Source of the DNA: Deltaproteobacteria bacterium
GTDB taxonomy: Bacteria; Myxococcota_A; Polyangia; JAAYKL01
DNA length: 64,000 nt
NCBI GenBank assembly: GCA_029565915.1
Contig: JAKQNG010000197.1
Span: 12,759-76,758 of the forward strand
Reading direction: 5' to 3'
Shown here piece by piece: positions 1,994-26,224 of the stretch (the stretch's first letter is position 1; each line of letters begins with the position of its first letter). Below the pieces are notes generated by a model. The model was not told the origin of the DNA. It searched no databases and was given only the letters and a program-made list of their open reading frames with translations. The position numbers and the translations under genes were made by a program.

Positions 1994-3865
1994 CTACCAG
2001 GTCAGGCCGTAACCCAGGGGAAACAGGGGCTGGTCGTCCTTGTCTCCCTCGTTGATGGGAATCTGTTCCATGGCGGCGGGCCAAGAATGGGAAAGCTTTC
2101 CCGTGGGCGCCACATCGCCGAACAGGACATCCGCAATACCGTCCCCTTCGGAGCCGGGAAGCCATGCGGCAATGAAGCCGTCGGCCATGTCGATTTCGTC
2201 GGTGACGATCATCGGCCGTCCCGAGAACAGAATGACAACATAGGGCACGCCACTCTTTTCCATGTTCGCGATGGCCCGTCGATCCCCCTGGTCGAGGTGC
2301 AGGTCATCCCGATCGCCGTGCCATTCCGCATAGGGCATTTCTCCCACCACCACCACTCCCGCATCCGTCCGCCGCGAAATTCCCGAACCATCCAGGCTCC
2401 AGGTCACCCGCGCGCGCTTCTGCAGGGCCGAAAGAACCGTGGTGCCCTCGGTCCGACGTCCTTCGCCGGCCCAGGTCACCGTCCATCCGCCGCACTGGAT
2501 GGTCAAATCGTCGGCGCCGCTGCCGGCTACGTGAATCCGTGCCCCCGGCGTCAGCGGCAGCAGGCCGGCATTTTTCAGCACGACCAGCGACTTCGCCACT
2601 GCTTCCCGGGCCACCTGCCGATGACCGTCACAGCCCACTTTTGCCGTCAGCGCCGGATCCGTTTTCGGTGAATAGCCTTCATCGAACATGCCCATCTCGC
2701 ACTTCACCTGCAGAATTCGCCGCACCGCATCATCCAGCCGTTCCAGAGAAATCCGGTCCGGCACCGCGGACACCACCGCGGCGATGAATTCCCTGTAGCG
2801 ATCGGGCACCATCACCATGTCCACCCCCGCATTAATGGCGGTTTCCACATCCGAGGCAAAGCCGCCGGGCAGATCGTCAATGCCTTCCCAGTCGGAAATG
2901 ACAAACCCGGCGAAGCCCAGCTCGCCTTTCAGCACGTCTGTCAGCAGATGCTTTTCGCCGTGCATTTTTGTTCCCATGTAACTGCTGTAGGACACCATCA
3001 CTGTGCCGGCTCCGGCCGCAATCGCGGGAATGTACTGGTCCACCGCCAGTGCGCGGAACCGGGCCATGTCCAGCCGCACGTCCCCCCGGTCGAGAAATGC
3101 GTTGTCCATGTGTGACGTGCCGTACAGGGTGGCGCCATCGCCGGCGAAATGCTTGATGCTCGCCAGCACTGAGCCGGGGCTCCGCAGGGACGCGCCCTGT
3201 AACCCCTGCACGGCTGCCGTCCCATACAGAGCGGCCAGTTCCGGTGTTTCGCCAAAGGCCTCGTAGGTGCGGCCCCATCGTTCGTCCCGCGCGGCTGCGA
3301 GAACCGGTGCAAACGCCCAGTCCACACCGCTGCCGCGGGTTTCCAGTGCGGTGACCCGCGCGGCTTTTCGCACCAGGTCGGGATCTCCCGTGCACCCCAG
3401 ACCGATGTTGTGAGGGAATACCACCGCACCCGTGCTCTTGGCGTTTCCGTGCACGGCGTCGATGCCGAACAGCAGGGGAATGCCGGGTTCGGAGCGCAGG
3501 GCGATTTTTCTGACTTCATCGATCCAGGCAGCCCAGGCACCGGCGCTCAAATCGGTTCCGGGAAAATCCGTGCCGCCGGCCAGCATGGAACCGATGGCAT
3601 AGCGGGCCAGATCTTCCTTGTCCGTCAGATAACGCATGGCAACCTGGGTCATCTGACCCGCCTTCTGTTCGGTCGTCAGTCGGGCGAGGACCGATGCGGC
3701 CGTTTCCTTGCAGGCCGGGGACGGCGACCACGGTCCGTCACGCAAAGGAGACGGGAGTTCGTCTGCGAAGGGCGTCGTTGGCGCAGGCGACGGCTGCGTC
3801 CCGGGATTCGCACCACAGGACAGACACAGCAGGGACAGGAGTACAGCGGGGCGGATCAGGAACAT
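1994..3865 (-). CDS. Glycoside hydrolase family 3 (beta-glucosidase / beta-hexosaminidase-like) lipoprotein
   Basis: GH3 N-terminal-domain signature GFAGFVISDWEGI. Lipoprotein signal MFLIRPAVLLSLLCLSCG. An alternative upstream start lies at 3931. Confidence 0.85.
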   Translation of the reverse strand: MFLIRPAVLLSLLCLSCGANPGTQPSPAPTTPFADELPSPLRDGPWSPSPACKETAASVLARLTTEQKAGQMTQVAMRYLTDKEDLARYAIGSMLAGGTDFPGTDLSAGAWAAWIDEVRKIALRSEPGIPLLFGIDAVHGNAKSTGAVVFPHNIGLGCTGDPDLVRKAARVTALETRGSGVDWAFAPVLAAARDERWGRTYEAFGETPELAALYGTAAVQGLQGASLRSPGSVLASIKHFAGDGATLYGTSHMDNAFLDRGDVRLDMARFRALAVDQYIPAIAAGAGTVMVSYSSYMGTKMHGEKHLLTDVLKGELGFAGFVISDWEGIDDLPGGFASDVETAINAGVDMVMVPDRYREFIAAVVSAVPDRISLERLDDAVRRILQVKCEMGMFDEGYSPKTDPALTAKVGCDGHRQVAREAVAKSLVVLKNAGLLPLTPGARIHVAGSGADDLTIQCGGWTVTWAGEGRRTEGTTVLSALQKRARVTWSLDGSGISRRTDAGVVVVGEMPYAEWHGDRDDLHLDQGDRRAIANMEKSGVPYVVILFSGRPMIVTDEIDMADGFIAAWLPGSEGDGIADVLFGDVAPTGKLSHSWPAAMEQIPINEGDKDDQPLFPLGYGLTW

Positions 3866-6624
3866 CCGGAGGTGGAGCCGCAGTTGATGCAGCGGTGACA
3901 GGCACCGTTGCGCACCATGATGGAACCGCATTCCGGGCAGGGAGGGGCATCGACTTCCGTCTGGAATCCCACCAGCGACGTGGGGGACCCCGGCCCGAGG
4001 CTGTCCGTTTCAACCGATGGCGCGGACACGGGCGCCGGCGGCAGGCTGGTCAGTCCGCCATTCTGTATGAACCGCCGTCCGTCTGCCTTCTGGAACTTCA
4101 GATCCAGCCAGCGGAAGATGTAGTCCATGATCGATTTTGCAATGGGGATTTCCGGGTTTCTTGTGATGCCGGAGGGCTCAAACCGGGTGTGACAGAATTT
4201 GTCCACCAGGACCGACAGGGGCACGCCGTACTGCAGCGCCAGGGAAATCGCCGTGGCAAATGAATCCATGAGTCCCGAGACCACGGATCCTTCCTTGGCC
4301 ATGCGGATGAAAATTTCGCCCACCTGACCGTCTTCGTACAGCCCGGCGGTGATGTAGCCTTCGTGACCGGAGATGTCGAACTTGTGGGTGATGCTCTGCC
4401 GCTCATCGGGGAGCCTTCTGCGCCGCATGCCCGGCTCAATGGCAAAGCCCACGGGCGGCCTGGAAGCGGTTTTCGCGGTCGCGGAGGTGTTGAGGGGTTG
4501 CGTGCGCTTGGAACCATCCCGGTAGATGGCGATGGCCTTGAGACCCAGCTTCCACGCATCCGTATAGATGCGGAAGATGTCGTCCGGCGTGGCCTCCGTG
4601 GGAACGTTCACGGTCTTGGAAATGGCGCCGGAGATGAACGGCTGCACGGCGGCCATCATGCGGACGTGTCCTTCGGGCGCGATGCACCGCTTTCCGTTGG
4701 AAGCCTTGAAGGCGCAGTCGAAGACGGGCAGGTGCTCGTCGTTCAGTCCCGGTGCGCCTTCGATGGTGCCCTTCGCGTCGATGTGGTTGATGATGGCCTC
4801 GATTTCCGCATCGTCATAACCGAGTCGCTCCAGTGCCGCGGTAACCGAGTTGTTCACAATTTTCAGGACGCCGCCGCCGACGAGGCTCTTGTACTTCACA
4901 AGGGCGATATCCGGTTCCACGCCGGTGGTATCGCAGTCCATCATGAAGGCAATGGTGCCCGTGGGGGCCAGCACTGTGGTCTGCGCGTTGCGGAAACCGT
5001 GGCGGGAGCCCATGGAAATGGCCCCGTCCCAGACGTCCCGCGCCGCCTCCAGCATCCATGGGGACGCCAGCTCCTCGTCAATGTCGTCCACGGCTTCCCG
5101 GTGCATCCGCATCACTTCGAGCATGGATTCCGCATTGGGCGTGTACTCGGAGAAGGGTCCGATGGCCGAGGCCATGCGGGTGGACTGGGCGTAGGCCTCA
5201 CCGGTCATGAGCGCCGAAATCCCCGCCGCGTATGCCCTTCCCGCATCGCTGTCGTAGGGAATGCCGCGCCGCATGAGCAGGGCGCCCAGGTTCGCATATC
5301 CCAGCCCCAGAGGCCGGAACAGGTGGCTGTTCTTTTCGATGCGCGCCGTCGGGTACTGGGCGTTGTCCACAAAGATATCCTGCGCCGTAATCATGATGTC
5401 GATTACATGCTTGAACAAATCAATATCAAATTCGCCTTCTTCCGTAATGTACCGCATCAGGTTGAGCGAGGCGAGGTTGCAGGCGGAGTTGTCGAGGAAC
5501 ATGTATTCAGAGCAGGGGTTGGACGCATTGATGCGACCGGAGGCCTTGCAGGTGTGCCAGCGATTGCAGGCGTCGTCGAACTGCATGCCCGGATCCCCGC
5601 AGAGGTGAGTGGCTTCGGCGATGTCCTTCATGACCTCTTTTGCCTGCAGGGTTTCCATTGGTCGACCGTCCTTGACGGAAAGGGTCTGGTATTCCCTGTT
5701 TTCCACCACTGCATGCATGAAGTCGTCGGACGCGCGAACGGAATTGTTGGAGTTCTGAAAAAAAACAGAGCTGTAGGCCTCTCCGTTGATGTCGCCGCTG
5801 TAGCCGGCATCGATGAGATCCCATGCCTTCTTTTCTTCATGCACCTTGCAGTTTACGAATTCGCGGATGTCCGGATGGTTGGCGTTGAGAATAACCATCT
5901 TTGCCGCCCGACGGGTCTTCCCGCCGCTCTTTATCACGCCGGCAAAGGAGTCGAATCCGCGCATGAACGATACGGGACCGGAGGCCATGCCTCCCGAAGA
6001 GAGCTGTTCTCTGGATGATCGAATGGTGGAGAAGTTCGTTCCCGAGCCGGAACCGCCCTTGAACAGGTGCGCTTCCGTGGCGGCGAGTTCCATGATGGAT
6101 TCCATGGTGTCGTCCACGGAATTGATGAAACATGCGGAGGCCTGTGGGTGGGGATCGATGCCCACGTTGAACCACACGGGACTGTTGAATGTGGCCATCT
6201 GATGCAACAGGATGTGCGTCAACTCGGCTTCGAAAGTTTCCGCATCGTGCTCGGAGGAAAAATAGCCGTCCTTGCGACCCCACGTGCAGATGCAGCCCAC
6301 CACGCGATTGATGATCTCGCGGACGGATTTTTCCCGTTCCTGCACATCCGATTTGCTGCGGAAATATTTGGACACCACCACGTTCGTGGCCAGCTGGCTC
6401 CAGAATGAGGGAATTTCCACATCATTGGCATCAAGGATCTTTTCGCCCTTGTCATTGGTGATGCTCGCGTGTCGCAGTTCCCACTTCACCTGATCGTAGG
6501 GATGCTCTCCCACCCGGGTGAGAACACGGGAAAACTTGAGTCCTCCTCCCGCATGAAGAGCCGTCCGTTTCAGTTTCTCCATCTGTCCGTCTTTTCTGGG
6601 TCTGGTCTGCTGTATGGTGCTCAT
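3856..6624 (-). CDS. nrdJ: Adenosylcobalamin-dependent ribonucleoside-diphosphate reductase (class II RNR)
   Basis: 922 aa with the RNR catalytic core and a C-terminal zinc ribbon (CPECGSIMVRNGACHRCINCGS) typical of NrdJ. Confidence 0.93.
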   Translation of the reverse strand: MSTIQQTRPRKDGQMEKLKRTALHAGGGLKFSRVLTRVGEHPYDQVKWELRHASITNDKGEKILDANDVEIPSFWSQLATNVVVSKYFRSKSDVQEREKSVREIINRVVGCICTWGRKDGYFSSEHDAETFEAELTHILLHQMATFNSPVWFNVGIDPHPQASACFINSVDDTMESIMELAATEAHLFKGGSGSGTNFSTIRSSREQLSSGGMASGPVSFMRGFDSFAGVIKSGGKTRRAAKMVILNANHPDIREFVNCKVHEEKKAWDLIDAGYSGDINGEAYSSVFFQNSNNSVRASDDFMHAVVENREYQTLSVKDGRPMETLQAKEVMKDIAEATHLCGDPGMQFDDACNRWHTCKASGRINASNPCSEYMFLDNSACNLASLNLMRYITEEGEFDIDLFKHVIDIMITAQDIFVDNAQYPTARIEKNSHLFRPLGLGYANLGALLMRRGIPYDSDAGRAYAAGISALMTGEAYAQSTRMASAIGPFSEYTPNAESMLEVMRMHREAVDDIDEELASPWMLEAARDVWDGAISMGSRHGFRNAQTTVLAPTGTIAFMMDCDTTGVEPDIALVKYKSLVGGGVLKIVNNSVTAALERLGYDDAEIEAIINHIDAKGTIEGAPGLNDEHLPVFDCAFKASNGKRCIAPEGHVRMMAAVQPFISGAISKTVNVPTEATPDDIFRIYTDAWKLGLKAIAIYRDGSKRTQPLNTSATAKTASRPPVGFAIEPGMRRRRLPDERQSITHKFDISGHEGYITAGLYEDGQVGEIFIRMAKEGSVVSGLMDSFATAISLALQYGVPLSVLVDKFCHTRFEPSGITRNPEIPIAKSIMDYIFRWLDLKFQKADGRRFIQNGGLTSLPPAPVSAPSVETDSLGPGSPTSLVGFQTEVDAPPCPECGSIMVRNGACHRCINCGSTSGCS

Positions 6625-6793
6625 CCTCGACTCCTGAAAAAGGCCCGTTCATCCATGCGATTAACGCCCAATCGCCCGATTTTGACAAAACCGGTCCGAA
6701 AACCGATTGAATTACAGGCCCATTGTGAAAAAAGTTGTTCAGTGTTTGACGCACCATGGTTTGTGCGGCATTCGAAACCTGAAGTCAAGAATT

Positions 6794-6845
6794 TTGACAC
6801 AATATGTTGGGTTTCAGTTTCCCTGAAAACCCATATATTGTGCCT
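6794..6845. promoter_or_regulatory. Two candidate NrdR boxes in the nrdJ 5' leader
   Basis: ACACAATATGTTGG (approx. 6797-6810) and CCCATATATTGTGC (approx. 6830-6843) both resemble the NrdR box palindrome acacwAtATaTwgtgt. Centres lie ~33 bp (3 helical turns) apart, 170-220 bp upstream of the nrdJ ATG. Confidence 0.45.
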
Positions 6846-7035
6846 GACTGGACGCATCTCCAGTCTTTCCCACAGGTTACCCACACTTTCTTCCACTGTT
6901 TCCCCCACTGAACAGACTGTTATCCACAGTTCCTCCCCATTCATATACTTCTGTTCAGCTGCCGTGAGCATTCGCCCGGAAGGATGTTTTTGCCGGTTTT
7001 TTGCGCCCCCGGGTCCGTCCCTTTATATAGAAATC

Positions 7036-7794
7036 ATGCCGATAACGAAACCATCAACCAACTCTGACATACCGCTCATCCGCCTCGAACGGGTGAGCCG
7101 CTTCTTTCGACCCGACAAGCCGGCGCTGTTCGATGTTTCCTTCGACATTGCCCGGGGCGAATTCCTTTACATCACCGGGGCATCCGGCGCAGGGAAGAGC
7201 ACCCTGCTGAAGCTCATTCACCTGTCGGAGCCGCCGGATACAGGAGCTGTTTTCGTGAACGGCCACGATGTGGCCACCCTTCGCGCGGGCGCCGTGTCGG
7301 TGCTGCGCCGTTCCATGGGCGTGGTGTTTCAGGATTTCCACCTCATCGGCGACCTCACCGTGGGCGCCAACATCGGCCTGTCCCTCGAAGTGCTGGGCGT
7401 CTCGCCGTCCTTCATCGCTCGCCGCATCCGGGAGGTCCTCGCGGAAGTGGGTCTCGAAGACATGGAGGATGAAATCGCCGGCTCCCTGTCCGGCGGGGAG
7501 CAGCAACGGGTGGCGGTGGCCCGGGCCCTGGCACCCCGGCCCCAGCTCATTCTCGCGGATGAACCCACGGGAAGCCTCGATGCGTACAGCGCGGACTTCA
7601 TCCTCGACCTGCTCGAAACTGTCAACGGGAACGGCGCCACGGTGGTGGTTGCCACGCATGATCGCATGCTGATGGCCGCGCGACCCCACCGGATTCTCGC
7701 GCTGGATGCCGGACGGCTCGTCGGTATGTCACCGCGCCAGAAAGCCGCTTCCGGCCATGGTCAGCCGGACGCCGGCGTCAAAGAGGTTGGATGA
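7036..7794 (+). CDS. ftsE: Cell division ABC transporter ATP-binding protein FtsE
   Basis: Walker A GASGAGKST, ABC signature LSGGEQQRV, Walker B ILADEP. Immediately followed by ftsX. Confidence 0.9.
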   Translation: MPITKPSTNSDIPLIRLERVSRFFRPDKPALFDVSFDIARGEFLYITGASGAGKSTLLKLIHLSEPPDTGAVFVNGHDVATLRAGAVSVLRRSMGVVFQDFHLIGDLTVGANIGLSLEVLGVSPSFIARRIREVLAEVGLEDMEDEIAGSLSGGEQQRVAVARALAPRPQLILADEPTGSLDAYSADFILDLLETVNGNGATVVVATHDRMLMAARPHRILALDAGRLVGMSPRQKAASGHGQPDAGVKEVG

Positions 7795-7795
7795 C

Positions 7796-8713
7796 ATGGA
7801 AGCAAAACCCACAGGACAGTTCATTTATCGCGCGGCGCACATCCTGCTGCGCGCCACCGGCGGTATCCGCCGTCGACCATGGCTCCACCTGCTGTCCACG
7901 CTCACGCTGGCAGCGGCGTTTCTCAGCTTCGCCGCCACGCTGACCGTGGCCCGCAACCTGAACCATCTCATCGACCGGTGGGTGGGGAATTCCGAAATGA
8001 CGGTGTACCTGAAGGACACATCAACGGCGGATCTGGAGCGACTGCGCAACGCAATTGCCGCCATCGATGGCGTGGAACGGGTCGAGGTGATTCGACCGTC
8101 CGCGGCGAGACAGAATTTTGCCCGGGATCTGGGGGCCTTCGGCGATCTGGGCGCCACCCTTCCCGAAGCGGCCTTCCCCGCTTCCATCGACATTCATCTG
8201 TCTCGGCGCCTCGCGGACAACGACCGGGAGCGCCATGCGCTGTCCGCGCGCCTGTCGAAGGTGCACATGGTGGAGGAAGTGGAGGTCTACGACGACTGGT
8301 TCAAGCGATTGTCCGCCATGAGTACCATGGGCCGCACGGCCTCGTGGGGGCTGGGCATCCTCGCGGCCATCGTTGCCATCCTGGTCGTCGCTGCCACGGT
8401 CCGCACGGGCGTGGCGGCACGGCGCAAGGAAATTGCCGTGCTGCGGCTCGTCGGAGCCACCGAAACCTATGTGCGGACGCCGTTTCTCATCGAGGGAGGC
8501 ATCGAAGCGGCCATTGCCATGGGGATTGCACTGTTCTGCCTCCAGCAGATGATGAATCACGTGGACGCCGTTGTGGGAGGCATCATGCCGCTGCTCGGCG
8601 GAGGGCGCATTCTACGATTGGAGTCCACCTGGCTGCTGTTCATGGTGGTCGGCGGCCTGCTGGCGGGACTGGTTGGCGCGCGGTTGTCCCTGCGGCGTCT
8701 GGAGGAAGCATGA
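7796..8713 (+). CDS. ftsX: Cell division permease-like protein FtsX
   Basis: Begins 1 nt after the ftsE stop. Has an N-terminal TM, a periplasmic domain and a C-terminal 3-TM FtsX fold (VLRLVGATETYVRTPFLIEG). Confidence 0.85.
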   Translation: MEAKPTGQFIYRAAHILLRATGGIRRRPWLHLLSTLTLAAAFLSFAATLTVARNLNHLIDRWVGNSEMTVYLKDTSTADLERLRNAIAAIDGVERVEVIRPSAARQNFARDLGAFGDLGATLPEAAFPASIDIHLSRRLADNDRERHALSARLSKVHMVEEVEVYDDWFKRLSAMSTMGRTASWGLGILAAIVAILVVAATVRTGVAARRKEIAVLRLVGATETYVRTPFLIEGGIEAAIAMGIALFCLQQMMNHVDAVVGGIMPLLGGGRILRLESTWLLFMVVGGLLAGLVGARLSLRRLEEA

Positions 8714-9249
8714 GGCGGGCATGGTGGCTGGCGATGGTGCTGTTTCTGGTCGGCATCCCGGCGGCCCGGGCCGGGGAACTCATCTGGGTCACAGACGAGG
8801 AAATCACCGCCGAACTGGCCTCCCGGCAGAACGATCTGGTCCGCACCACCTCCCGCATTGAACAGCTGGGTGAGCGGCGGGATGCCCTGCGCCGGGAAAT
8901 CGACATCATCACCGCCGACCTGGCGTCCATCGACAACCGGCTGACCGCCCGGATTTCGATGCTCTACCGCCTGTCCCGCAATGGACGAAGCCTGCAATAC
9001 CTCGTTGCGTCCAGTTCAGCCATTGAATTTCTGAAGCGAATGGCCACTCTGCGCCGGCTGATCACGTCCGAGCTCGAAGCGCGACGGGAGGTCAGTCTCG
9101 CCCTGTCGAGGACCATGGACGAAGCGGTACAGGTGGAAACCGAAATGACCGGTGCGGTCCGTTTCTGCGAAGAGCTGCAGCTGGCCATCGACGAACTGAC
9201 ACTGGAGCTGGCCGGCCGCACATCGGGAACGACGACCCGTCATTCATGA
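8710..9249 (+). CDS. Secreted coiled-coil protein, EnvC-like N-terminal domain only (no M23/LytM domain)
   Basis: ATGA overlap with the ftsX stop. Signal peptide MRRAWWLAMVLFLVGIPAARA, then ~150 aa of heptad-rich coiled coil. Its position after ftsEX is where EnvC-type activators sit. Confidence 0.5.
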   Translation: MRRAWWLAMVLFLVGIPAARAGELIWVTDEEITAELASRQNDLVRTTSRIEQLGERRDALRREIDIITADLASIDNRLTARISMLYRLSRNGRSLQYLVASSSAIEFLKRMATLRRLITSELEARREVSLALSRTMDEAVQVETEMTGAVRFCEELQLAIDELTLELAGRTSGTTTRHS

Positions 9250-9894
9250 CAGGACGACCACCGCGCGAGCCTGTTCCTCGTCGAGGGTGATTTCGAATCC
9301 GCCGAGGGCCACCACCTGTCGATGTCCGGCAGTGCGCCGGACGAGTCGGATCCGGGCATCCGGCAGCAGTCCCATGTCGATGAGGCGGTGATGCGCTTCG
9401 CCCACCGCACGGATGAGGGAGACAGTGGCCTCCTCGCCCGGCGCCATTGATGCAATGGTCCGCTCCGGCGCCTGCGGTGCCGATGGCAGCGGAATGGCGG
9501 AAACAGGTGGATGGGCCAGCAGGGCATTCATCTGCGACATGGTTTCGGGAAACAGCGCGTGGGCCACCGCATCGGTCTGCCGACGGGCCGTCGGTTCGTC
9601 CATCTGCAGTATCCGGCAGAAGAACGCGAAGACGGTCTGCCTCTTTTTCTCGATCCGCCGCACCGCATCCCGCCCTTCCGCTGTCAGGGTCACCGATTCC
9701 CGCTTCGCATGGGCAACAAGGCCGCGCGCCGCCAGTAACCGCATGGCGGGAGTGGCGGAACCCGGTTTGACGGCCCGCAGACGGGCAATGTCGCGGACCT
9801 TTGCCACGCCGCCATCGCGGACCAGAGTTGCCACCGCGCAGAGGTAGTCCTCCTGCGAGGAGGACAGGGCCTGGAATCGGGAATGTGCATTCAT
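9244..9894 (-). CDS. DtxR/MntR-family metal-dependent transcriptional regulator with C-terminal FeoA (SH3-like) domain
   Basis: N-terminal winged HTH similar to DtxR/IdeR, a metal-binding/dimerisation region, and a C-terminal FeoA-like segment (EEATVSLIRAVGEAHHRLIDMGLLPDARIRLV). Confidence 0.8.
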   Translation of the reverse strand: MNAHSRFQALSSSQEDYLCAVATLVRDGGVAKVRDIARLRAVKPGSATPAMRLLAARGLVAHAKRESVTLTAEGRDAVRRIEKKRQTVFAFFCRILQMDEPTARRQTDAVAHALFPETMSQMNALLAHPPVSAIPLPSAPQAPERTIASMAPGEEATVSLIRAVGEAHHRLIDMGLLPDARIRLVRRTAGHRQVVALGGFEITLDEEQARAVVVLS

Positions 9895-9951: not shown

Positions 9952-10052
9952 TTTAAAATTAAATGAGCCCCGGCCGTAGTGGATTGATTTTATCGCCTGA
10001 TTGGTCTACGTTGCTCCTTCCTGAAAATGGCATCAACCGTCGGAGAATCACC

Positions 10053-12131
10053 ATGAAAAAGTACGACACCAGGCTTATCCGGAACATCTGTTTCGCCGGA
10101 CATCTCGGCAGCGGCAAAACCTCCCTTGCGGAGGCGATTCTGTTCAACGCGGGCGCGACGAGCCGGCTCGGCTCGGTCATGGACGGTACCTCGACGTTCG
10201 ATTTTGAACCCGAAGAAATCAAGCGACAGGGTTCTATTTCGGCGGCGTTTGCCGCGGCCGAGTGGAAGAAGTTCAAGATTCAGCTCTGCGATACTTCGGG
10301 TGACTCCAACTTTTTTGTGGACTCCCGCAATACGCTGGCGGTCAACGACATCGCGGCGATTGTCATTTCGGCCGTGGACGGTGTTCAGGTGGTGACCGAA
10401 AAGCTGTTTCAGGTCGCGGCGGACAACAACATCCCCGCGGTGGTCATCATCAATAAAATGGATCGGGAGCGATCAAGTTTCTCGACGGCCCTGTCCCAGG
10501 CCCAGGAATCCCTGTCGCGGAAGATCGCTCCGGTCATCATTCCCATCGGTGCCGAGGACAGCTTCACGGGCGTAGTGGACGTGCTGAAGAACAAGGCATG
10601 GTCATTCCCTGCGGATGGATCCAGAAATGTCTCTGAAATCCCGGTGCCGGCGGATCTCGAAGCGGACGTGCAGAGCGCCCGCGAGGCGCTGGTCGAAGTC
10701 ATTGCGGAATCAGATGACGTATTAATGGAAAAGTATCTGGAAACCATGGAGCTCACCGAAGACGAAATTCGCATCGCTCTGCCGAAGGCTATTTCGTCAG
10801 GTGCGCTGATCCCCGCCGTCGCCGCCTCCGCAACAAAGAACGTGGGCATCGCGCCGCTGCTCGACCTGATTTGCGACAGCTTCCCCTCGCCGGCGGATCG
10901 CCCCGCGCGCACCGCAAAGGTCGGCGACAACACCGTTGAGATTGCACCGACGGAGGATCAGCCCTTTGCCGCAACGGTGTTCAAGACGGTACAGGACAAG
11001 TTTACCGGTTCTCTGGCCATCTGCCGCATCTGGTCGGGCACCATCGAAGCCGACAGCGGGTTCTTCAACGCGACGCGCAGCGAAAAGGAGCGGTTCGGCC
11101 AGATTCTGGTGCCCATGGGCAAGAAGCAGGACAACGTGCCGAAGGCCGGCGCGGGCGACATCATCGCCTTTGCCAAGCTGAAGGAAACCAAGGTCGGCGA
11201 TTCCATCTGCGACGAGTCGCGGAAGGTCATTTTCCCGGCCCTGCCCACCATCAATCCGGTTATCACCTACGCGGTGCATGCCAGGGACAAGAACGAAGAA
11301 GACAAACTCGGCCAGGCGCTGAACCGCATCGCCGAAGAAGATCCGACCATCCACATCATCCGCAACAAGGAAGTGAAGCAGACCCAGATCGCCGGGATGG
11401 GTCAGGTGCACATCGATACGGCCATCGAGAAAATCAAGCGGATCTTCGATATTGAAGTGGAATTGCTGCCCCCGCGGATTCCCTACCGGGAGACCATCCG
11501 TAAAAAAGTGCAGAATGTGGAAGGCAAGCACAAGAAGCAGTCCGGCGGACGGGGACAGTTCGGTGTCTGCTATCTGCATGTGGAGCCGAATCCCGCAATG
11601 GGTTTCGAGTTCGTAAATGCCATCGTCGGCGGATCCATTCCCAGACAATGGATTCCGTCTGTCGAAAAGGGGATTGTTGATCGCATGGAACGGGGCGTCA
11701 TCGCCGGTTATCCGGTGGTGGATGTGAAGGTCACGCTGTATGACGGCAAGTACCACGATGTGGACTCTTCCGACGCGGCGTTCCAGATGGCCGGATCAAA
11801 GGGATTCAAGGCGGCCACGGAGCAGGCAGGGCCCTATCTGCTCGAGCCCATCTGGAATCTCGAAGTCGTGTGCCCGGAGGACTGCATGGGAGACGTGATG
11901 GGCGACATCAGCTCCCGGCGCGGAAGAGTGCAGGGCATGGAAGCCAGCGGACACAATCAGATTGTCCGTGCCCAGGCGCCCATGGCTGAGCTTCTCCGTT
12001 ACGCACCGGACTTGAATTCGATTACGGGGGGGCGCGGTACCTTCACGGTGAGTTTTTCCCACTACGAAGAAGTACCCCGGGAAATTCAGGAAAAAGTCGT
12101 CGCCGAGTACAAGCACGAAGAAGAAGAGTAG
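10053..12131 (+). CDS. Elongation factor G-like GTPase (EF-G paralog)
   Basis: G1 motif GHLGSGKTS, DTSG switch, NKMD (G4), and EF-G domains II-V. Start at MKKYDTRLIRNI with a GGAGA RBS. Confidence 0.85.
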   Translation: MKKYDTRLIRNICFAGHLGSGKTSLAEAILFNAGATSRLGSVMDGTSTFDFEPEEIKRQGSISAAFAAAEWKKFKIQLCDTSGDSNFFVDSRNTLAVNDIAAIVISAVDGVQVVTEKLFQVAADNNIPAVVIINKMDRERSSFSTALSQAQESLSRKIAPVIIPIGAEDSFTGVVDVLKNKAWSFPADGSRNVSEIPVPADLEADVQSAREALVEVIAESDDVLMEKYLETMELTEDEIRIALPKAISSGALIPAVAASATKNVGIAPLLDLICDSFPSPADRPARTAKVGDNTVEIAPTEDQPFAATVFKTVQDKFTGSLAICRIWSGTIEADSGFFNATRSEKERFGQILVPMGKKQDNVPKAGAGDIIAFAKLKETKVGDSICDESRKVIFPALPTINPVITYAVHARDKNEEDKLGQALNRIAEEDPTIHIIRNKEVKQTQIAGMGQVHIDTAIEKIKRIFDIEVELLPPRIPYRETIRKKVQNVEGKHKKQSGGRGQFGVCYLHVEPNPAMGFEFVNAIVGGSIPRQWIPSVEKGIVDRMERGVIAGYPVVDVKVTLYDGKYHDVDSSDAAFQMAGSKGFKAATEQAGPYLLEPIWNLEVVCPEDCMGDVMGDISSRRGRVQGMEASGHNQIVRAQAPMAELLRYAPDLNSITGGRGTFTVSFSHYEEVPREIQEKVVAEYKHEEEE

Positions 12132-12156: not shown

Positions 12157-14016
12157 CTATTTGCCGAAAATCTTTCCGAAAAGGCCCTTTTTCTTCCCTC
12201 CGCCGGGGAAGTCGCCGGGGCCGGTCAGATCGTCGTCTGCACCCATGGTTGGTGGAGCGACGAACGGTGGCGGCATGACCGGCGGCGGCAGGGAAGGTGG
12301 CGGCAGGGAGCGCCGCTGAGCCACCAGCCTGGCGAGATCGGCCGGCAGCGCGTCATCGGGAAGGGTTTCCGGGGCATGGGAGACGCGCGCCAGGTGCTGT
12401 TCCCGTTCGCTGACGGGGTGTTCGGTCCGGGTCGCCTCACCGTCAAAAATGTCATCCAGCGCAGGGCCAACGGAACCGCCTTCCAGCAGGGATTCGCTCC
12501 AGGTGGGTCTCGGCAGGGCGTCATCCTTTGACAGGTCTTCGATCAGAGTGCCGATCCGGTCGTTGGCGGACACGGTCTCATCGTCGTCCTCAAGAGGTTC
12601 CGGTTCAAAGACGTCGTCATCGCCGATCAGCTCGTCCACCATGTGCCGGGGAACCGCCGTGGAAACCTCAATGTCCATCTCATCGGTGGATTCGGCGATA
12701 ATGTAGTCCTTCGCGTCGAGGAAGCCGCTGTCATCAAAATCCATATCCGAATCCTCGATGTGTTCTCCAATGATGATGGAATCGTCCAGCTCATCGTCGT
12801 CGTCGAGAACAATCGCATCGTCGTCGTCGAGAGACGCCACATCCAACTCTCCGCTGTCGGAACGCAGGGACGACGCGGTGATGATGCCGGTGGCGTCTTC
12901 GTCTTCATCGGCCTCTATCGAAGAGCTCGGTGCAATGGACAGGGGGGGGACGGACAAAGGTTCCACGCCGTCGGGTTCCAGGGTTTCGGTGAGGCCGCCG
13001 TCTCCGATTTCGGACGAAATCAGATCGGCGATGCTGGTGCTGGTGCTTCGGGGTTTCGGGCGATGGAGCGCGGGCACGTCCGTCCGCGGGACCGGCGGCG
13101 CAGCAGAAATCTTCTTTGGCGGCGGAAGTTCGTCGCCCGGCATCTGGATGGCATCAAACGCGGCAATGACGTCGTCGATTTCTTCCTGGTCAGCCTCAAT
13201 GCGGGCGGCCTTCTGCTCTGCCTTGCGCTTCTGCTCGGCTGCCCTTGCCCGGGCCTGAATGATGTCCTCTTCGTCGGCCTTCTGTCGGACTTCCTGTTCA
13301 GCCTTCTGCCGGGCTTCTTCATCAGCCTTCTGTCGGGCGTCCTGTTCAGCCTTCTGCCGGGCTTCTTCATCAGCCTTCTGCCGGGCCTCCTGTTCAGCCT
13401 TCTGCCGCGCTTCCTGTTCGGCCTTCTGCCGCGCTTCTTCGGCTGAACGGTCTTCCGCGGGTGGATCGGCGGATTCCCCATGGACCTTCTTGTGCCGTTT
13501 CTTCAGTGTGCCTGCCGCGATGTCCTCCAGCATGGAATCCACATCGCTCAGGCTCACATCGGAATGCCGATGCCGACGGACCCGGTGCGCGTCGCCCTCA
13601 TGAGCATCCTGCACAGCGGCGGTTGTTTCCGGCGCCGGCTCCGTCACTGCCGGCGGCGGCGCTTCCGAATACCTGGAGGGCCCGAGCACGTCGTCCTGTT
13701 TCTTGTGGACGAGGATCTTGCGGATGGTTTCCTTGCTGGTTGCATCCAGCTTGAGAAATTTGATTCCCATTCCCGCGGGCTTGCTGCCCTCGTCGAGTGT
13801 CCTGTTCCACGCCACTTCGCCCAGACCCAGCAGCACGACCGTGTCGTCCGCCAGCTTCAGCTCGAATTTAACCGGTGTCCCCACCTCGCGAGGTTGCGGG
13901 GTCTTGAAGAAAATGCCGTACTTGGAAACGTTCTGTGCATACCCTGTTACAAAGGATTCCACCGTCGGATACTTCAACTTCGCCCGTATCACTGCATGTT
14001 TCGATGCTTCGGTCAC
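12157..14016 (-). CDS. PilZ-like N-domain protein with TolA-like 8-aa repeats, acidic disordered region and C-terminal basic amphipathic tail
   Basis: GTG start. The N-terminal ~105 aa has a PilZ-fold pattern (NVSKYG, GMGIKFL), followed by (EEARQKAEQ)n repeats, a long D/E-rich low-complexity region, and a C-terminus GGGKKKGLFGKIFGK resembling a MinD-type membrane-targeting helix. Confidence 0.6.
   Translation of the reverse strand: MTEASKHAVIRAKLKYPTVESFVTGYAQNVSKYGIFFKTPQPREVGTPVKFELKLADDTVVLLGLGEVAWNRTLDEGSKPAGMGIKFLKLDATSKETIRKILVHKKQDDVLGPSRYSEAPPPAVTEPAPETTAAVQDAHEGDAHRVRRHRHSDVSLSDVDSMLEDIAAGTLKKRHKKVHGESADPPAEDRSAEEARQKAEQEARQKAEQEARQKADEEARQKAEQDARQKADEEARQKAEQEVRQKADEEDIIQARARAAEQKRKAEQKAARIEADQEEIDDVIAAFDAIQMPGDELPPPKKISAAPPVPRTDVPALHRPKPRSTSTSIADLISSEIGDGGLTETLEPDGVEPLSVPPLSIAPSSSIEADEDEDATGIITASSLRSDSGELDVASLDDDDAIVLDDDDELDDSIIIGEHIEDSDMDFDDSGFLDAKDYIIAESTDEMDIEVSTAVPRHMVDELIGDDDVFEPEPLEDDDETVSANDRIGTLIEDLSKDDALPRPTWSESLLEGGSVGPALDDIFDGEATRTEHPVSEREQHLARVSHAPETLPDDALPADLARLVAQRRSLPPPSLPPPVMPPPFVAPPTMGADDDLTGPGDFPGGGKKKGLFGKIFGK
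13255..13445. repeat. Approximately seven imperfect 24-bp tandem repeats (cagccttctgccgggcttcttcat)
   Basis: Direct tandem repeats seen in the sequence, encoding the EEARQKAEQ/QEARQKAD repeat block of the PilZ-like protein. Confidence 0.7.
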
Positions 14017-14037
14017 GTGTGCGTTCCTCGCTTGGTT

Positions 14038-16689
14038 CTATCCGGCCGGCTGCATGACGCGATCATAGATGAGAGCCACCGCATCGGCCAGTCGTCCCAC
14101 TTCCGTACCGCCCGCCTGGGCCAGATCCGGACGCCCGCCGCCCCGCCCGCCGACCACCTTTGCGATGTCGCCGATCAGCCTGCCCGCGTGAAAACGACCG
14201 ACCAGATCCGGGGTCACCGCCACGACCAGCGCGGCCTTCCCGCCGTTGTCCCCACCCAGGCAGATGACGCCGGAACCGATTTTCTGCCGCAGCGTATCCG
14301 CGCTGTCGCGCAGTGCCGCCGGATCTCCGGTGGGCAGCACCGCACCGATGACATTTACACCGGCAACCTTCTTCATCTGACTCATCAGGTCCGCCCCGCC
14401 GCCACTGGCCAGCTCCCGCTGCAGCTTTTCAACCTGGCGCACCAGTTCCTTTTCGCGGACGACGCATTTTTCCACTCGATCGAGGAGCGTTGATGGGGTC
14501 GTTTTCAACAGGTCCGCACAGGCGGCCATCCGCTCCCGTTCCCGGGCGATGAAAGCCACCGCCGCGTGACCACAGACCGCTTCAATGCGCCGCACGCCCG
14601 CTGCGACACCACCTTCGCTGACAATGAAGAAGGGGCCAACGTCGCCGCTGCGGGACGCGTGGGTGCCGCCGCAGAGTTCGCGGCTCTGTCCACCCACGTC
14701 GACGAGCCGTACCCGATCACCGTAGTTTTCTTCGAACAGGGCCATGGCACCGGTGGCCCTGGCGTCCTGCAGGGAGGTGACCGTCGTCTCCACCGGATAA
14801 TTGTCAATCACCAGTTCTGCGACGATGCGCTCAATGTCCCGGAGCTGTGCATCCGGGAGGGCTTCGAAATGCGTGAAGTCGAACCGCAGGGAATCGGGTG
14901 CCACCCGGGATCCCTTCTGGGTCGCGTGAGGGCCCAGCACCCGCCGGATGGCGAGATGGAGCAGATGGGTAGCCGTGTGGTGGCGGGCAATATCCTTGCG
15001 CCGATCACCGTCCACGGTCGCCGTGATCGGATCGCCTGCCCGGAAAGTGCCTCCGGCCACGCGGACGCGATGGGCGAAGAGACCCGGGAGAGGTCTGGTC
15101 ACATCCGTCACCGTCGCCTCCGCGCCCGCCGCCGTCAACCGGCCCGTATCCCCCACCTGGCCGCCGGACTCTCCGTAGAAGGGCGTCCGCGACAGGACGA
15201 TGTCGCCTTCCTGTCCCGCAGACAGGGACTGTACCGACGCACCATCGACGACGATGCCCAGCACCACGGCGTCGTCCGTCAGGCGATCATAACCGGTGAA
15301 CTCGGTTTTCCCCCGGGCTTCCAGGATGTCCCGATAACCGGGCGCCGCGGCTTCTTCGCCGATCCGCCCGGCACCGGAGCGGAGCTTGTGGGAATCCTTC
15401 GCGCTCTCGTAGCCGTCGTAATCCACGGTGAATCCGTCTTCCGCGCCGATGACCTCCACCAGGTCGAGGGGAAATCCATATGTGGCAGAAAGTTCGAACG
15501 CGATATTTCCGGGCAGGATCCGTTTCCCCGCCGGTCCCTGGTGCCAGTCGCTGTTCTCCGCGAGCAGCGAGAGTCCCCGGGTCAGGGTCAGGCGGAATCG
15601 CTCCTCTTCCTGGGCGCACACCTTTTCGATGAGCTCCCGGCGCTCCACCAGCTCCGGATAGGCGCTCCCCATGCCGTCCACGACGGCCATGGCCACCCGG
15701 TGGAGGAACAGGTCCTCGATACCCAGTCGATGTCCGTGGCGGATGGCCCGGCGCATCACCCGGCGCAGCACGTATTCGCGTCCGGTCTTTTCGGGAAAGA
15801 TGCCTTCGGAAATCAGATGAGCCGCCATCCGGGCGTGGTCCGCGATGACCCGCATGGACACGTCGTCCTCCGCATCCGAGCCGTATTTCTTTTTCGCGAT
15901 AGTGCCGGCCAGGGACACGAGGGGCGCGAACAAGTCGATGTCGTAGTTGGATTCCACGTTCTGCAGCACGGAAACGATGCGTTCGAGGCCCGCGCCCGTG
16001 TCGATGCAGGGGGCCGGCAGCTTTTTCATGGGTCCGCCCGCTTCCTCCACCATGTACTGCATGAACACCAGGTTCCAGACTTCGAAGAAGCGCTCGCCGT
16101 TTTCGAGTTTTGCTTCGCCGAAGCGCTCACCGCGGTCGTACATGATTTCTGAACAGGGGCCGCAGGGGCCCGTGTCGCCCATGGACCAGAAATTGTCCGC
16201 GGCAGATCCCTCCAGCACCCGCTCCGCCGGCACGCCGAGCTGCTGTGTCCAGATGCGGACGGCCTCTTCGTCCCGTGGGGCATTGTCATCCCCGCGGAAG
16301 ACAGATACCCACAGACGGCTCCTGTCGAAGCCGAGCACGTCCGTCAGGAATTCCCAGCCGAACCGGCAGGCGTCCTGCTTGAAGTAATCGCCGAAGGAAA
16401 AGTTGCCCAGCATCTCGAAAAATGTGTGGTGACGGCTGGTGCGTCCGACGTTTTCGAGGTCGTTGTGTTTGCCGCTGATGCGGATGCACTTCTGCACCGT
16501 GGTGGCGCGGGGCGCGGGGCGCTTCTGACGGCCGGTGAACACGTTCTTGAACTGCACCATTCCCGCGTTGGCGAACATGAGGGTCGGATCCTGCGGCGGT
16601 ACAAGGGAACCGGAGGGAATCACCTGATGGCCGTTCGATTCGAAATAGCGAAGGAATGCGCTTCTGACGTCACTGGTGGTTCTGATCAT
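14038..16689 (-). CDS. alaS: Alanine--tRNA ligase
   Basis: 883 aa. N-terminus MIRTTSDVRSAFLRYFESNGHQVIPSGSLVPPQDPTLMFANAGMVQFK is diagnostic of AlaRS. Editing and C-Ala domains are present. Confidence 0.97.
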   Translation of the reverse strand: MIRTTSDVRSAFLRYFESNGHQVIPSGSLVPPQDPTLMFANAGMVQFKNVFTGRQKRPAPRATTVQKCIRISGKHNDLENVGRTSRHHTFFEMLGNFSFGDYFKQDACRFGWEFLTDVLGFDRSRLWVSVFRGDDNAPRDEEAVRIWTQQLGVPAERVLEGSAADNFWSMGDTGPCGPCSEIMYDRGERFGEAKLENGERFFEVWNLVFMQYMVEEAGGPMKKLPAPCIDTGAGLERIVSVLQNVESNYDIDLFAPLVSLAGTIAKKKYGSDAEDDVSMRVIADHARMAAHLISEGIFPEKTGREYVLRRVMRRAIRHGHRLGIEDLFLHRVAMAVVDGMGSAYPELVERRELIEKVCAQEEERFRLTLTRGLSLLAENSDWHQGPAGKRILPGNIAFELSATYGFPLDLVEVIGAEDGFTVDYDGYESAKDSHKLRSGAGRIGEEAAAPGYRDILEARGKTEFTGYDRLTDDAVVLGIVVDGASVQSLSAGQEGDIVLSRTPFYGESGGQVGDTGRLTAAGAEATVTDVTRPLPGLFAHRVRVAGGTFRAGDPITATVDGDRRKDIARHHTATHLLHLAIRRVLGPHATQKGSRVAPDSLRFDFTHFEALPDAQLRDIERIVAELVIDNYPVETTVTSLQDARATGAMALFEENYGDRVRLVDVGGQSRELCGGTHASRSGDVGPFFIVSEGGVAAGVRRIEAVCGHAAVAFIARERERMAACADLLKTTPSTLLDRVEKCVVREKELVRQVEKLQRELASGGGADLMSQMKKVAGVNVIGAVLPTGDPAALRDSADTLRQKIGSGVICLGGDNGGKAALVVAVTPDLVGRFHAGRLIGDIAKVVGGRGGGRPDLAQAGGTEVGRLADAVALIYDRVMQPAG

Positions 16690-19528: not shown

Positions 19529-19782
19529 CGAAGACCTCCACCTGAGTTGGACCGGCCGTCGAGGGACCGGTAGTTGACGGTCCGGAACTTCTCAATTCCC
19601 GTGCCACCTTCCGCGGGCGGACAAAAAAACAATCAGAATCGGTGGGTTGCGGGGAAACGGACGGCTTCGGGGACCTGTCGAAATGGTTCAAAATCGTGTC
19701 GTTTGCGTTTTCCGGGACGGAATTGTCCAATGTCGGAGCGGAGGTTGACAGGATCGGGTCCGGTGCACAGGATGGTCATTCA

Positions 19783-21354
19783 ATGAAACCTTATTTATTT
19801 ACAGCGATTCTGTTTCTGGCGGCCTGCGGCAAGGTCGATGTCCCGGCAGAGAAGGCCCCCGCGGGTTCAGCGACTCCACCCTCCCCCACCGGCGACGGAG
19901 GGAAAGAATCTTCCGCACAGACCGACGACGGATTTCCCCGCGCGGCGGATGCCCATTTCGGCCACCTGCCTTCTACCCTCATCCGCAAGCCCCACAAAAT
20001 TGCGCGGATCGATCGCCCCTCCGTGGTGCTGATTGTCATCGACACCCTGAACGCGAAACACATGTCGACCTACGGTTACGAGCGCCCCACCACGCCGCGC
20101 ATCGACGCCCTGGCGCAGAAGGGCATCCGGTTCACCGGTTACGTTTCGAATTCGTCATGGACCCGCCCGTCCTTTACCACAATCATCACCGGACTGCCCA
20201 AGCGGGAGCACGGAGTGGAGCTGGCGAAAAGGGACGTGGACAGGGACATCACCACCATTGCCGAGTACTTCCGGGCCGCCGGCTACCGGACCGCCGGTTT
20301 CGTGGGCAATCCGCTGGTCCGCGGCGTGTGGGGCTTCAACCAGGGATATCAGGTGTACGGGGATACGGCGTCGATGAACAAGGCGTTTCCGCCGGACGGC
20401 CGGGTGGCGCAGCTCGCCGTGGACTGGCTGAAAAAGAACGCGGACGCCCCGTTCTTTCTAAAAATATTTTTTACGGCACCCCACGCGCCCTACCGGCCCC
20501 TGGACAGCGCAAAGCATTTTGTCAACACCGTCGAAAGAGGCACCGTGGTGGAGTATCCCTTCCGCGAATACGCGCAACCCATGCCCCGGGCCGACCATGA
20601 AAAAACCGTGGCTGCCTACGACGACGAAGTGCGCTATGCCGACGCCCAGGTGGGCCGCATCGTGGACGCCCTGCAGGAGCTGGGAGCTTTGTCCCGCACG
20701 GCCATCGTCGTCACCGCGGACCACGGCGAAGTCTTTGGCGACCACAACTGCTGGCAGCACACCTACCACATGTGGGAAGCGGCCCTGCGGGTGCCCTTTG
20801 TGCTGTACCTGCCCTTTTCGGAAACGACGGGGCTGCGGGATGACCGACCCTTCACCCACGTGGATATCCTGCCCACCCTGCTGGACATCGCGGGCATCGC
20901 GCCCGATGGCCTGCGGCCCGCGGGGCTGTCCATCGTGGACGCCCTCGCGCGCAACACCGATCTGTCCGACCGCATCCTGCTGTCCCAGTACAACGCCCAC
21001 GGCATCCGGCGGCAGGCGGTCCGGCAGGGCGCCTTCAAGCTCGTCCACCACCATCCGGTCAGCGCTGACGCCCTCGCCCACCTGAACAGCCTCCACGAGG
21101 ACATTCCCCACGAGGATCCCGCGGACCTGAAGACCCTGGCCACGGACGGCGAGCGCTGGGAGTTCTTCGATCTGGCCGCGGACCCGGGGGAACAGAGGAG
21201 CCTCCACACCACCATGAAGGAGGCCCCTGCCTACCCGGCCCTGATGGACGCCCTTCAACGCGAGCTCGAAGGGGACGACGAGAACAGCGCCCTGTCGAAG
21301 GAGCTGCTGGAGGCCCTGGAGGCGGCGGGCTACATCATGCACGACTCGCCTTGA
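19783..21354 (+). CDS. Sulfatase-family (alkaline-phosphatase superfamily) lipoprotein
   Basis: Lipobox LAAC. Sulfatase N-domain blocks IDTLNAKHMSTYGY and TADHGE. The region where the canonical C/S-x-P-x-R motif should be reads SSWTRPS, which is non-canonical. Confidence 0.75.
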   Translation: MKPYLFTAILFLAACGKVDVPAEKAPAGSATPPSPTGDGGKESSAQTDDGFPRAADAHFGHLPSTLIRKPHKIARIDRPSVVLIVIDTLNAKHMSTYGYERPTTPRIDALAQKGIRFTGYVSNSSWTRPSFTTIITGLPKREHGVELAKRDVDRDITTIAEYFRAAGYRTAGFVGNPLVRGVWGFNQGYQVYGDTASMNKAFPPDGRVAQLAVDWLKKNADAPFFLKIFFTAPHAPYRPLDSAKHFVNTVERGTVVEYPFREYAQPMPRADHEKTVAAYDDEVRYADAQVGRIVDALQELGALSRTAIVVTADHGEVFGDHNCWQHTYHMWEAALRVPFVLYLPFSETTGLRDDRPFTHVDILPTLLDIAGIAPDGLRPAGLSIVDALARNTDLSDRILLSQYNAHGIRRQAVRQGAFKLVHHHPVSADALAHLNSLHEDIPHEDPADLKTLATDGERWEFFDLAADPGEQRSLHTTMKEAPAYPALMDALQRELEGDDENSALSKELLEALEAAGYIMHDSP

Positions 21355-23894: not shown

Positions 23895-23935
23895 ACAGTT
23901 AAAATTTAAAAAAGCTCCGACGGGCCGGCTCCGGC
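23895..23935 (-). terminator. Hairpin+T-run terminator overlapping the last codons of the pectate-lyase gene
   Basis: On the minus strand: GCCGGAGCCGGCCCGTCGGAGC followed by TTTTTTAA. The stop codon TAA is embedded in the T-run. Confidence 0.35.
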
Positions 23936-26097: not shown

Positions 26098-26224
26098 GGG
26101 CATCGGGTGCAGCTTACCATTTCCGGGCATCGCCGAACAGATCTGGCACTCATCCGCAGCGGCGGGGCACTTCTGGTGCAGAACCGCCCGGCGGCGGTCT
26201 TCTCACTGTTTAAAGGAGTATCAG

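Follow-up and report, generated by a model that had tools for sequence, protein, structure and literature searches.

Introduction

PilZ domains are the textbook receptors for cyclic di-GMP (c-di-GMP), and the Myxococcota encode dozens of them with unknown function. The locus described here raises the question of what such a domain does when it forms the head of a much longer protein that ends in a putative membrane anchor. The locus lies in a stretch of 64,000 nucleotides (contig JAKQNG010000197.1 of assembly GCA_029565915.1, positions 12,759 to 76,758; referred to below as the window) from a Deltaproteobacteria bacterium of the class Polyangia. A gene on its minus strand (12157–14016) encodes a protein of 619 amino acids, in which a PilZ-like head without the ligand motif RxxxR is joined to a charged rigid helix, an acidic intrinsically disordered region (IDR) with linear motifs, and a C-terminal tail that resembles the membrane-targeting sequence (MTS) of MinD. 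An original prediction, made from the DNA letters alone, regarded the product as a membrane-tethered linker responsive to a second messenger. The analysis presented here points instead, with moderate confidence, to a cytoplasmic and peripherally membrane-anchored protein adaptor that carries a long spacer and acts independently of c-di-GMP.

Gene and domain organization

The elements of the open reading frame (ORF) listed in the original prediction were all located as described, and the minus strand can now be added. The ORF starts at a GTG codon 8 nt 3′ of a Shine–Dalgarno sequence (GAGGA) and closes with the stop codon at 12157–12159. Public protein data contain an identical protein (P0001) and a 90%-identical orthologue (P0002). 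A codon comparison with the gene of P0002 (locus L018) gives an overall ratio of nonsynonymous to synonymous substitution rates (dN/dS) of 0.21, with values of 0.00 for the PilZ head, 0.08 for the helix and 0.20–0.40 for the disordered parts; purifying selection acts along the full ORF, its low-complexity parts too. Because of this ratio, and because the orthologues carry the same N-terminal domain, motifs and tail, the ORF is not a chance one but a real gene, and an artefact or non-coding low-complexity ORF is ruled out. The features are as follows, with all coordinates on the minus strand of the window; AF2 denotes AlphaFold, and pLDDT its per-residue confidence, the predicted local distance difference test.

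14038–16689, minus: alaS (alanyl-tRNA synthetase), directly upstream on the same strand, a conserved neighbour.
14025–14029, minus: ribosome-binding site GAGGA, in the 21 nt that separate the gene from the alaS stop codon (14038–14040).
12157–14016, minus: complete coding sequence, 619 amino acids; identical protein P0001 public, dN/dS 0.21 against the P0002 gene.
13687–13995, minus: PilZ-like (TIGR02266, xPilZ-type) β-barrel domain, residues 8–110; Pfam and NCBIfam above cut-off, AF2, Foldseek and hidden Markov model evidence.
13915–13932, minus: NVSKYG, the [D/N]hSxxG motif, residues 29–34; N29, S31 and G34 invariant in the clade.
13651–13677, minus: post-domain linear motif SRYSEAPPP, residues 114–122; S114-R-Y-S-E..P..P invariant in a 5-sequence alignment.
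13516–13551, minus: short predicted helix LSDVDSMLEDIA, residues 156–167, a DSML-type motif; alignment and AF2.
13144–13458, minus: predicted continuous α-helix of 105 residues (187–291), ~15.8 nm, of the ER/K single-α-helix type; AF2 and charge pattern.
13270–13437, minus: seven tandem octapeptides [ED][AV]RQKA[ED][QE], residues 194–249, 24-bp units; number of copies variable, with 9 in P0215.
12571–13143, minus: proline-rich and then strongly acidic IDR, residues 292–482; pLDDT < 50, composition, dN/dS 0.40 (constrained).
12445–12564, minus: motif A, ..LIEDLSKDDALP....SLLE...VGPALDDIF, residues 485–524, with two short predicted helices; alignment and AF2.
12334–12375, minus: motif B, APETLPDDALPADL, residues 548–561; L552-P-D-D-A.P..L invariant.
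12205–12306, minus: proline-rich spacer, residues 571–604; 30% Pro over residues 561–604.
12160–12195, minus: polybasic and amphipathic tail KKKGLFGKIFGK, residues 608–619, a predicted MinD-type MTS; consensus, hydrophobic moment, AF2 helix 612–617.

The N-terminal PilZ-like head

The assignment of the N-terminal domain as PilZ-like is upheld by both family models and by its predicted fold. The head scores 32.6 bits against Pfam PF07238 (residues 22–102; gathering threshold 22.5) and 71.3 bits against NCBIfam TIGR02266 (residues 11–102; curated cut-off 68.7), and the Foldseek probability between it and PilZ structures is 1.0. The AlphaFold model of the head, obtained from an 18-sequence alignment, has a pLDDT of 90.9. 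It consists of a first strand (residues 8–13), a helix (19–29), four further strands (34–38, 48–54, 60–72 and 82–90) and a final helix (92–107), with the sequence GMGIKFL at residues 82–88. This E-H-E-E-E-E-H order is that of a PilZ β-barrel with a C-terminal helix, in which a helix replaces β2.

The closest structural relatives are found in Xanthomonas. The top 11 Foldseek matches in the PDB are all to the PilZ protein XAC1133/XC1028 (E 3e-5 to 3e-3, TM-score ~0.6, 22–24% identity), and the family profile, run against all PDB sequences, gives significant matches only to the same protein (E ~1e-6). By fold and by profile the head is therefore best matched by the ‘xPilZ’ group, which comprises XAC1133/XC1028 and PA2960 of P. 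aeruginosa and which, like the window head, has no RxxxR motif and a helix instead of β2. The Xanthomonas proteins do not bind c-di-GMP, the N-terminal loop that bears RxxxR having been lost and β2 replaced by a helix (Galperin and Chou, 10.1101/814665; also 10.1101/2020.02.11.943704).

The two heads nevertheless differ in several respects. XAC1133 is a stand-alone protein of 117 amino acids whose motif V must end at a free C-terminus, whereas the window domain is the head of a 619-residue protein and has no terminal motif V. The profile alignment shows that the window head keeps the [D/N]hSxxG motif that XAC1133 has lost, and that F49 and L51 of the XAC1133 FimX interface align, as read by eye, with K50 and E52. 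In XAC1133 motif V is a disordered tail that folds onto PilB; its position, after the C-terminal helix, is filled in the window protein by a conserved short motif. In addition W70, which is invariant in the family, aligns with Trp69 of XAC1133, a residue required for binding PilB. The tryptophan match and the position of the short motif are leads towards a PilB-type partner rather than tests of one.

Loss of the RxxxR motif

The original prediction had taken RAKLK as one half of an RxxxR motif and had left c-di-GMP binding uncertain. This sequence (residues 11–15) lies inside β1 (residues 8–13), downstream of the position to which RxxxR aligns, and corresponds to LKVRFK of canonical TIGR02266 relatives; it therefore does not make up one half of that motif. 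In relatives of the transmembrane (TM)/PEGA type the loop before β1 reads RKDKR, RKEKR, RKDRR and similar; the aligned positions are occupied by T-E-A-S-K-H in the window protein and by N-G-K-T, N-A-K-P or P-K-E-K in its orthologues. No arginine is present at the RxxxR positions of the window protein or of any core-clade member in the alignments. With RxxxR absent from the whole core clade, and with the nearest structures being Xanthomonas PilZ domains that do not bind c-di-GMP, a response to a second messenger is not supported, and binding of c-di-GMP by the window head appears unlikely from its sequence. Other architectures of the TIGR02266 family include PilZ–TM–PEGA proteins with an intact RxxxR (P0022 and similar) and a PilZ–DnaK protein (P0045).

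The alternative is that the protein is a c-di-GMP-responsive effector, whose head binds c-di-GMP or a related dinucleotide, the ligand then controlling tethering or partner binding. The Pfam PilZ model is matched, the residues of [D/N]hSxxG (N29, S31 and G34) are still invariant, and close to the lost motif two basic residues, K6 and R11, show conservation as well; the head may thus have residual or altered nucleotide binding. Moreover RxxxR is kept by three distant tail-bearing relatives (P0096, P0139 and P0170), one of which, P0139, adjoins a gene for a response regulator–GAF–HD-GYP-like protein. The invariant motif, the two basic residues and the RxxxR of these relatives also weigh against an adaptor blind to c-di-GMP. 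Against the effector stand the lack of arginine at either RxxxR position throughout the core clade, the non-binding Xanthomonas proteins as nearest relatives in structure and sequence, and the behaviour of PilZ proteins of M. xanthus: a single R-to-A change in the RxxxR of PixA abolishes binding, and PlpA, although its motifs are intact, shows no c-di-GMP binding (PMC8316039). A c-di-GMP-responsive effector is accordingly held to be improbable. Since the three tail-bearing relatives retain RxxxR, the family may descend from a c-di-GMP receptor, of which the window clade may be a ligand-blind derivative.

P0139 has 921 amino acids, its RxxxR motif reads RSEKR, and it is not beside alaS (L016 5001–9365). 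The gene that it adjoins has the domain order Response_reg–GAF–HD_5, a hint that this paralogue lineage may respond to c-di-GMP.

The charged helix and its repeats

In the full-length AF2 model the head is followed, after a linking region, by one unbroken helix (residues 187–291, pLDDT ~90), the length of which was computed at 0.15 nm per residue. Within it Tandem Repeats Finder detects 6.7 copies of a 24-bp unit with 83% matches (13277–13437). Seven repeats encoded by 24-bp units had been predicted, and both the count and the DNA unit stand; the nine-letter repeat EEARQKAEQ does not, the true period being 8 residues. The helix contains 31 pairs of opposite charge at i/i+4, its i+3/i+4 sum is reached by 0 of 5000 shuffles, and only 3 residues of the 76-residue core are hydrophobic. 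As modelled, the tract has the signature of an ER/K single α-helix (SAH) and not that of a coiled coil.

SAH domains are semi-rigid linkers, rich in R, E and K, that lie between functional domains (PMC5347031, PMC4183817, PMC5378345). The window helix shares with the SAH spacers of myosin VI/X, INCENP and the CAF-1 KER the same richness in E, R, K, Q and A, the dense i/i+4 salt bridges, the near lack of hydrophobic residues and the position between two functional modules; here the monomeric helicity is predicted.

The repeats had originally been described as of the TolA type. This likeness is one of composition: two TolA models give 43.2 bits (cut-off 59.45) and 38.3 bits (cut-off 213), and the match is confined to residues 181–284, so that charged single-α-helix spacer is the better term. 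TolA domain II has local similarity to the helix and is not homologous to it, as the scores are below cut-off and the window protein has no TM segment and is cytoplasmic. A TolA/TonB-like envelope-spanning protein, or else a non-coding or low-complexity artefact, could be suspected from these weak local matches and from the repetitive, low-complexity sequence. The matches, however, involve the charged helix only, there is no N-terminal TM anchor, signal peptide or TolA domain III, and purifying selection and conserved orthologues identify a real gene; a periplasmic or TolA assignment is rejected and the alternative as a whole can be considered refuted. Kinase, TPR and TonB proteins among the homology matches were likewise set aside, as they share only the charged repeat and neither the domain nor the tail.

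The repeat number had been expected to be prone to slippage, and near-identical variants from metagenome assemblies do differ. P0215, which falls in one 90% cluster with the window protein, is identical to it but for the octapeptides, of which it has nine and not seven, a count that comes from a metagenome assembly, which can mis-size tandem repeats. Since the 24-bp unit keeps every copy change in frame, such changes alter length and not expression, and phase variation is rejected. P0002 has seven octapeptides like the window protein and differs from it in a PLSIA repeat (15-bp unit; window ~12925–12950, residues ~356–363), present in 1 copy in the window protein and 3 in P0002, which is a second in-frame length polymorphism, inside the IDR. 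In distant orthologues the charged tract is replaced by (AEEAAAAKR)5 or by PEPEPE runs, which suggests that what is selected is the presence of a spacer and not its sequence.

The acidic disordered region

The long disordered region rich in D and E was also found as predicted: residues 346–560 contain 31% D/E with a net charge of −58, and the AlphaFold pLDDT is below 50 over residues 299–482. All 25 of the tail-bearing representatives compared (see below) have a negatively charged middle region, with net charges from −29 to −148. Short conserved motifs are embedded in and around this region. The sequence S[RK][YF][ST] occurs at ~112–121 in 15/25 of the representatives, motif A takes the family form LIxDL..P...PLL...ALDDIF, and motif B, with the family form PETLPDDA[VL]P..L, is present in 14/25. 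A search with the C-terminal module (A3) found 6 short proteins only, which were read as C-terminal fragments of family members, and gave no sign of the module with other N-terminal domains. The TFIIA match in Pfam (E 0.07) and other low-complexity matches in NCBIfam were dismissed as compositional.

Such a region could be the principal part of the protein, acting as an acidic hub or landmark scaffold, multivalent and polar or condensate-forming, for which the head would be one docking site of several and the tail a general anchor. In composition such a hub would be analogous to HubP/FimV or PopZ. The negative charge in every representative would agree with this, as would the at least three linear motifs conserved under purifying selection and a spacer whose chemistry, be it an ER/K helix, AEEAAAAKR repeats or PEPEPE, is interchangeable among orthologues. 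On the other hand the Pfam and NCBIfam scans show no homology to known hub proteins, conservation is by a wide margin strongest in the head (dN = 0), and only the head is kept in the alaS-linked Polyangia homologues without tail. A scaffold of this kind is rated rather unlikely.

The MinD-like C-terminal tail

The protein ends in GGGKKKGLFGKIFGK (residues 605–619). A total of 152 N-domain relatives, as family representatives, were examined for this tail, which has the consensus KKKGFFKKLFGK-COOH, and 25 of them keep it; these full-length tail-bearing representatives were compared. The tail likewise closes P0002, which is almost a duplicate of the window protein. The MinD-like tail that had been predicted is thus conserved in orthologues rather than peculiar to the window protein. 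Throughout the family a D/E-rich stretch is followed by KKKGFF[KG]KLFGK, the glycine before the helix and the last phenylalanine being invariant in 25/25, and only 1–4 residues follow this phenylalanine.

As in the MTS of MinD and FtsA, the very end of the protein consists of a polybasic run and, after it, a short predicted amphipathic helix. Compared with the membrane-targeting tag of E. coli MinD, KGFLKRLFGG (PMC5471200), there are 4/10 identities in the window protein, 7/10 in P0003 and 8/10 in P0059. The hydrophobic face (i, i+1, i+4, i+5) is the same in both, and the hydrophobic moment is 0.585 for the window tail vs 0.616 for the E. coli MTS. The protein contains no TM or signal-like segment (maximum 19-mer on the Kyte–Doolittle (KD) scale, 0.98), which makes a peripheral membrane tether through the tail plausible.

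The MinD MTS can be transplanted as a lipid-binding helix; a single copy of the E. coli length binds too weakly, and MinD needs dimerization (PMC8155659). In MinD avidity is provided by an oligomerization switch, of which no counterpart was found in the window protein, and Pfam and NCBIfam scans detect neither a ParA/MinD deviant Walker A ATPase nor an actin-like domain in it. As the tail is no longer than the E. coli MinD MTS, and such a helix is too weak singly, stable attachment is predicted to need multivalency.

It is also conceivable that the tail is no membrane anchor at all but a peptide that binds a partner, or a degradation or targeting signal, its likeness to MinD having arisen by convergence. 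The tail is short, rich in glycine and modelled with low confidence (pLDDT ~58), and the hydrophobic moment of its 11-mer is ordinary for its composition, being reached by 8052/20000 shuffles; both points also tell against anchoring as proposed here. Convergence would nevertheless have to account for the full MinD-type pattern (polybasic run, glycine, i/i+1/i+4/i+5) 1–4 residues from the C-terminus in 25/25 representatives, for up to 8/10 identities to E. coli MinD, and for a motif class known to be transplantable as a lipid-binding helix. A role other than anchoring is judged quite unlikely.

Distribution of the family and linkage to alaS

An exhaustive search with the head returned 3649 relatives with an E-value below 1e-3, of which 15 stay below 1e-30. 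The named members are annotated as ‘TIGR02266 family protein’ and all come from metagenome-assembled genomes (MAGs) labelled Deltaproteobacteria, Myxococcales or Myxococcota; all members are from uncultured Myxococcota or ‘Deltaproteobacteria’ genomes. This is the same phylum-level distribution as that of the TIGR02266 family, the cut-off of which the window protein passes. A scan of genome contigs with the single protein gave no match, the corresponding profile scan gave 10 loci, all from MAGs, and a word-indexed profile search of the N-domain found 4 fragments only. Literature searches returned nothing on TIGR02266, and nothing relevant on PilZ with an amphipathic helix or MinD. The M. xanthus PilZ proteins characterized in the literature consulted (PMC8316039) are described without an ER/K helix, acidic IDR or MTS. 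The supplement of that paper has no mention of alaS, and no M. xanthus orthologue is therefore assigned.

The alaS gene is located directly upstream on the same strand, with a gap of 7–40 nt, at 8/9 loci (the window, P0003, P0004, P0005, P0052, P0075, P0084 and P0170), P0139 being the exception. There is no terminator-like site between alaS and the PilZ-like gene in the window, and together with the short gaps and the recurrence at 8/9 loci this would fit an operon-like arrangement in which the two genes are transcribed jointly. In Polyangia and Haliangium loci the place after alaS is taken by shorter TIGR02266 genes without the tail, and the linkage of the head to alaS is therefore older than the tail.

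Several further observations concern these loci. The pairing of alaS with TIGR02266/xPilZ genes was seen across the Myxococcota in the window and in L002, L004–L006, L008, L009, L011–L015 and L017. The alaS-linked homologues of Polyangia and Haliangium have 314–336 amino acids, lack a MinD-like tail and end ...LSKKNGRNGKH. At the P0052 locus (L013 1–3148) a second PilZ-like gene (338 amino acids, weak Pfam match) is found upstream of alaS, beside a gene for an ATPase of the FliI/type III secretion system type. At the other end of the PilZ-like gene in the window, a paralogue of elongation factor G (EF-G; 9963–12131, plus strand) converges on its 3′ end with a 25-nt gap. This EF-G paralogue recurs with a radical-SAM gene in two more loci (L012 10996–13080 and L014 8451–9014).

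A proposed mechanism

The adaptor reading favoured here assigns a role to each part of the protein. The head would be a divergent PilZ domain of TIGR02266/xPilZ topology that binds a protein partner and is not a c-di-GMP sensor; with the RxxxR arginines lost, it is most likely a protein-binding module like those of Xanthomonas and Pseudomonas. It would be followed by a stiff ER/K helix of ~16 nm, its length set by the 24-bp in-frame repeats, each of which adds 8 residues (~1.2 nm). Charge repulsion would keep the acidic IDR of ~300 residues off the anionic membrane, and together the helix and the IDR could place the head at a distance of tens of nanometres from it. The short motifs of the IDR (SRYSExPPP, LIxDL...ALDDIF and PETLPDDA[VL]P) probably dock further partners. 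At the far end the MinD-type polybasic amphipathic tail is expected to insert into the cytoplasmic membrane, in its inner leaflet. Attachment would be achieved through oligomerization or through clustering induced by a partner, and may represent the step at which the system is regulated.

In addition to the retained motif residues and the modest properties of the tail, three points weigh against this proposal. W70 is also kept in TIGR02266 proteins that bear RxxxR, and may therefore be structural. The charged helix could dimerize in vivo. Finally, a survey of the other genes of the window turned up none related to pili, flagella, Min or c-di-GMP, and hence no candidate for a partner.

A more specific version of the adaptor can be put forward only tentatively and as clearly less probable than the general one. 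According to this the protein would be the first example of a phylum-restricted class of ‘fishing-line’ adaptors, in which repeat number and an electrostatically extended acidic IDR set a tunable distance between a ligand-blind xPilZ head and the inner membrane, and a weak, avidity-dependent MinD-type tail provides the anchor. The head might bring some cytoplasmic machine to the membrane, a PilB-like secretion or pilus ATPase being one candidate, and the unit would be coupled genetically to alaS throughout the Myxococcota.

Other genes of the window

The immediate neighbours are housekeeping genes, and the rest of the window consists of housekeeping and polysaccharide-degradation genes. About 3 kb from the PilZ-like gene, the plus-strand region 6469–9249 begins with an ORF for an ftsE-like ABC ATPase, followed by overlapping ORFs, putatively ftsX and a small gene whose product is a coiled-coil protein with a signal anchor (...MRRAWWLAMVLFLVGIPAARAGE...); together they form a possible division module of the FtsEX–EnvC type. 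Genes for a GH3 glycosidase, a sulfatase and two pectate lyases, one with CBM6/35 (1994–3931, minus; 19642–21354, plus; 23906–25834, minus; 26039–28063, plus), suggest a polysaccharide-degrading lifestyle of the source organism. A class II (B12-dependent) ribonucleotide reductase with TSCPD, a DtxR/MntR-type repressor with FeoA and a tgt–queA pair (3856–6624, 9244–9894 and 45796–47954, all minus) are ordinary housekeeping genes.

Conclusions

Each module of the protein is known by itself; the combination, together with the loss of RxxxR, a spacer set by repeats and the linkage to alaS, is not described in the literature found. A PilZ head devoid of its ligand motif is here joined to a charged rigid helix, an acidic IDR with linear motifs and a putative MinD-type anchor. 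The practical value at present lies in a clear definition of the family with testable predictions and not in a solved function. If the proposal is true, the family would represent a simple bacterial membrane tether whose reach depends on repeat count, and a natural second use of the MinD MTS outside the ParA/MinD and FtsA families.

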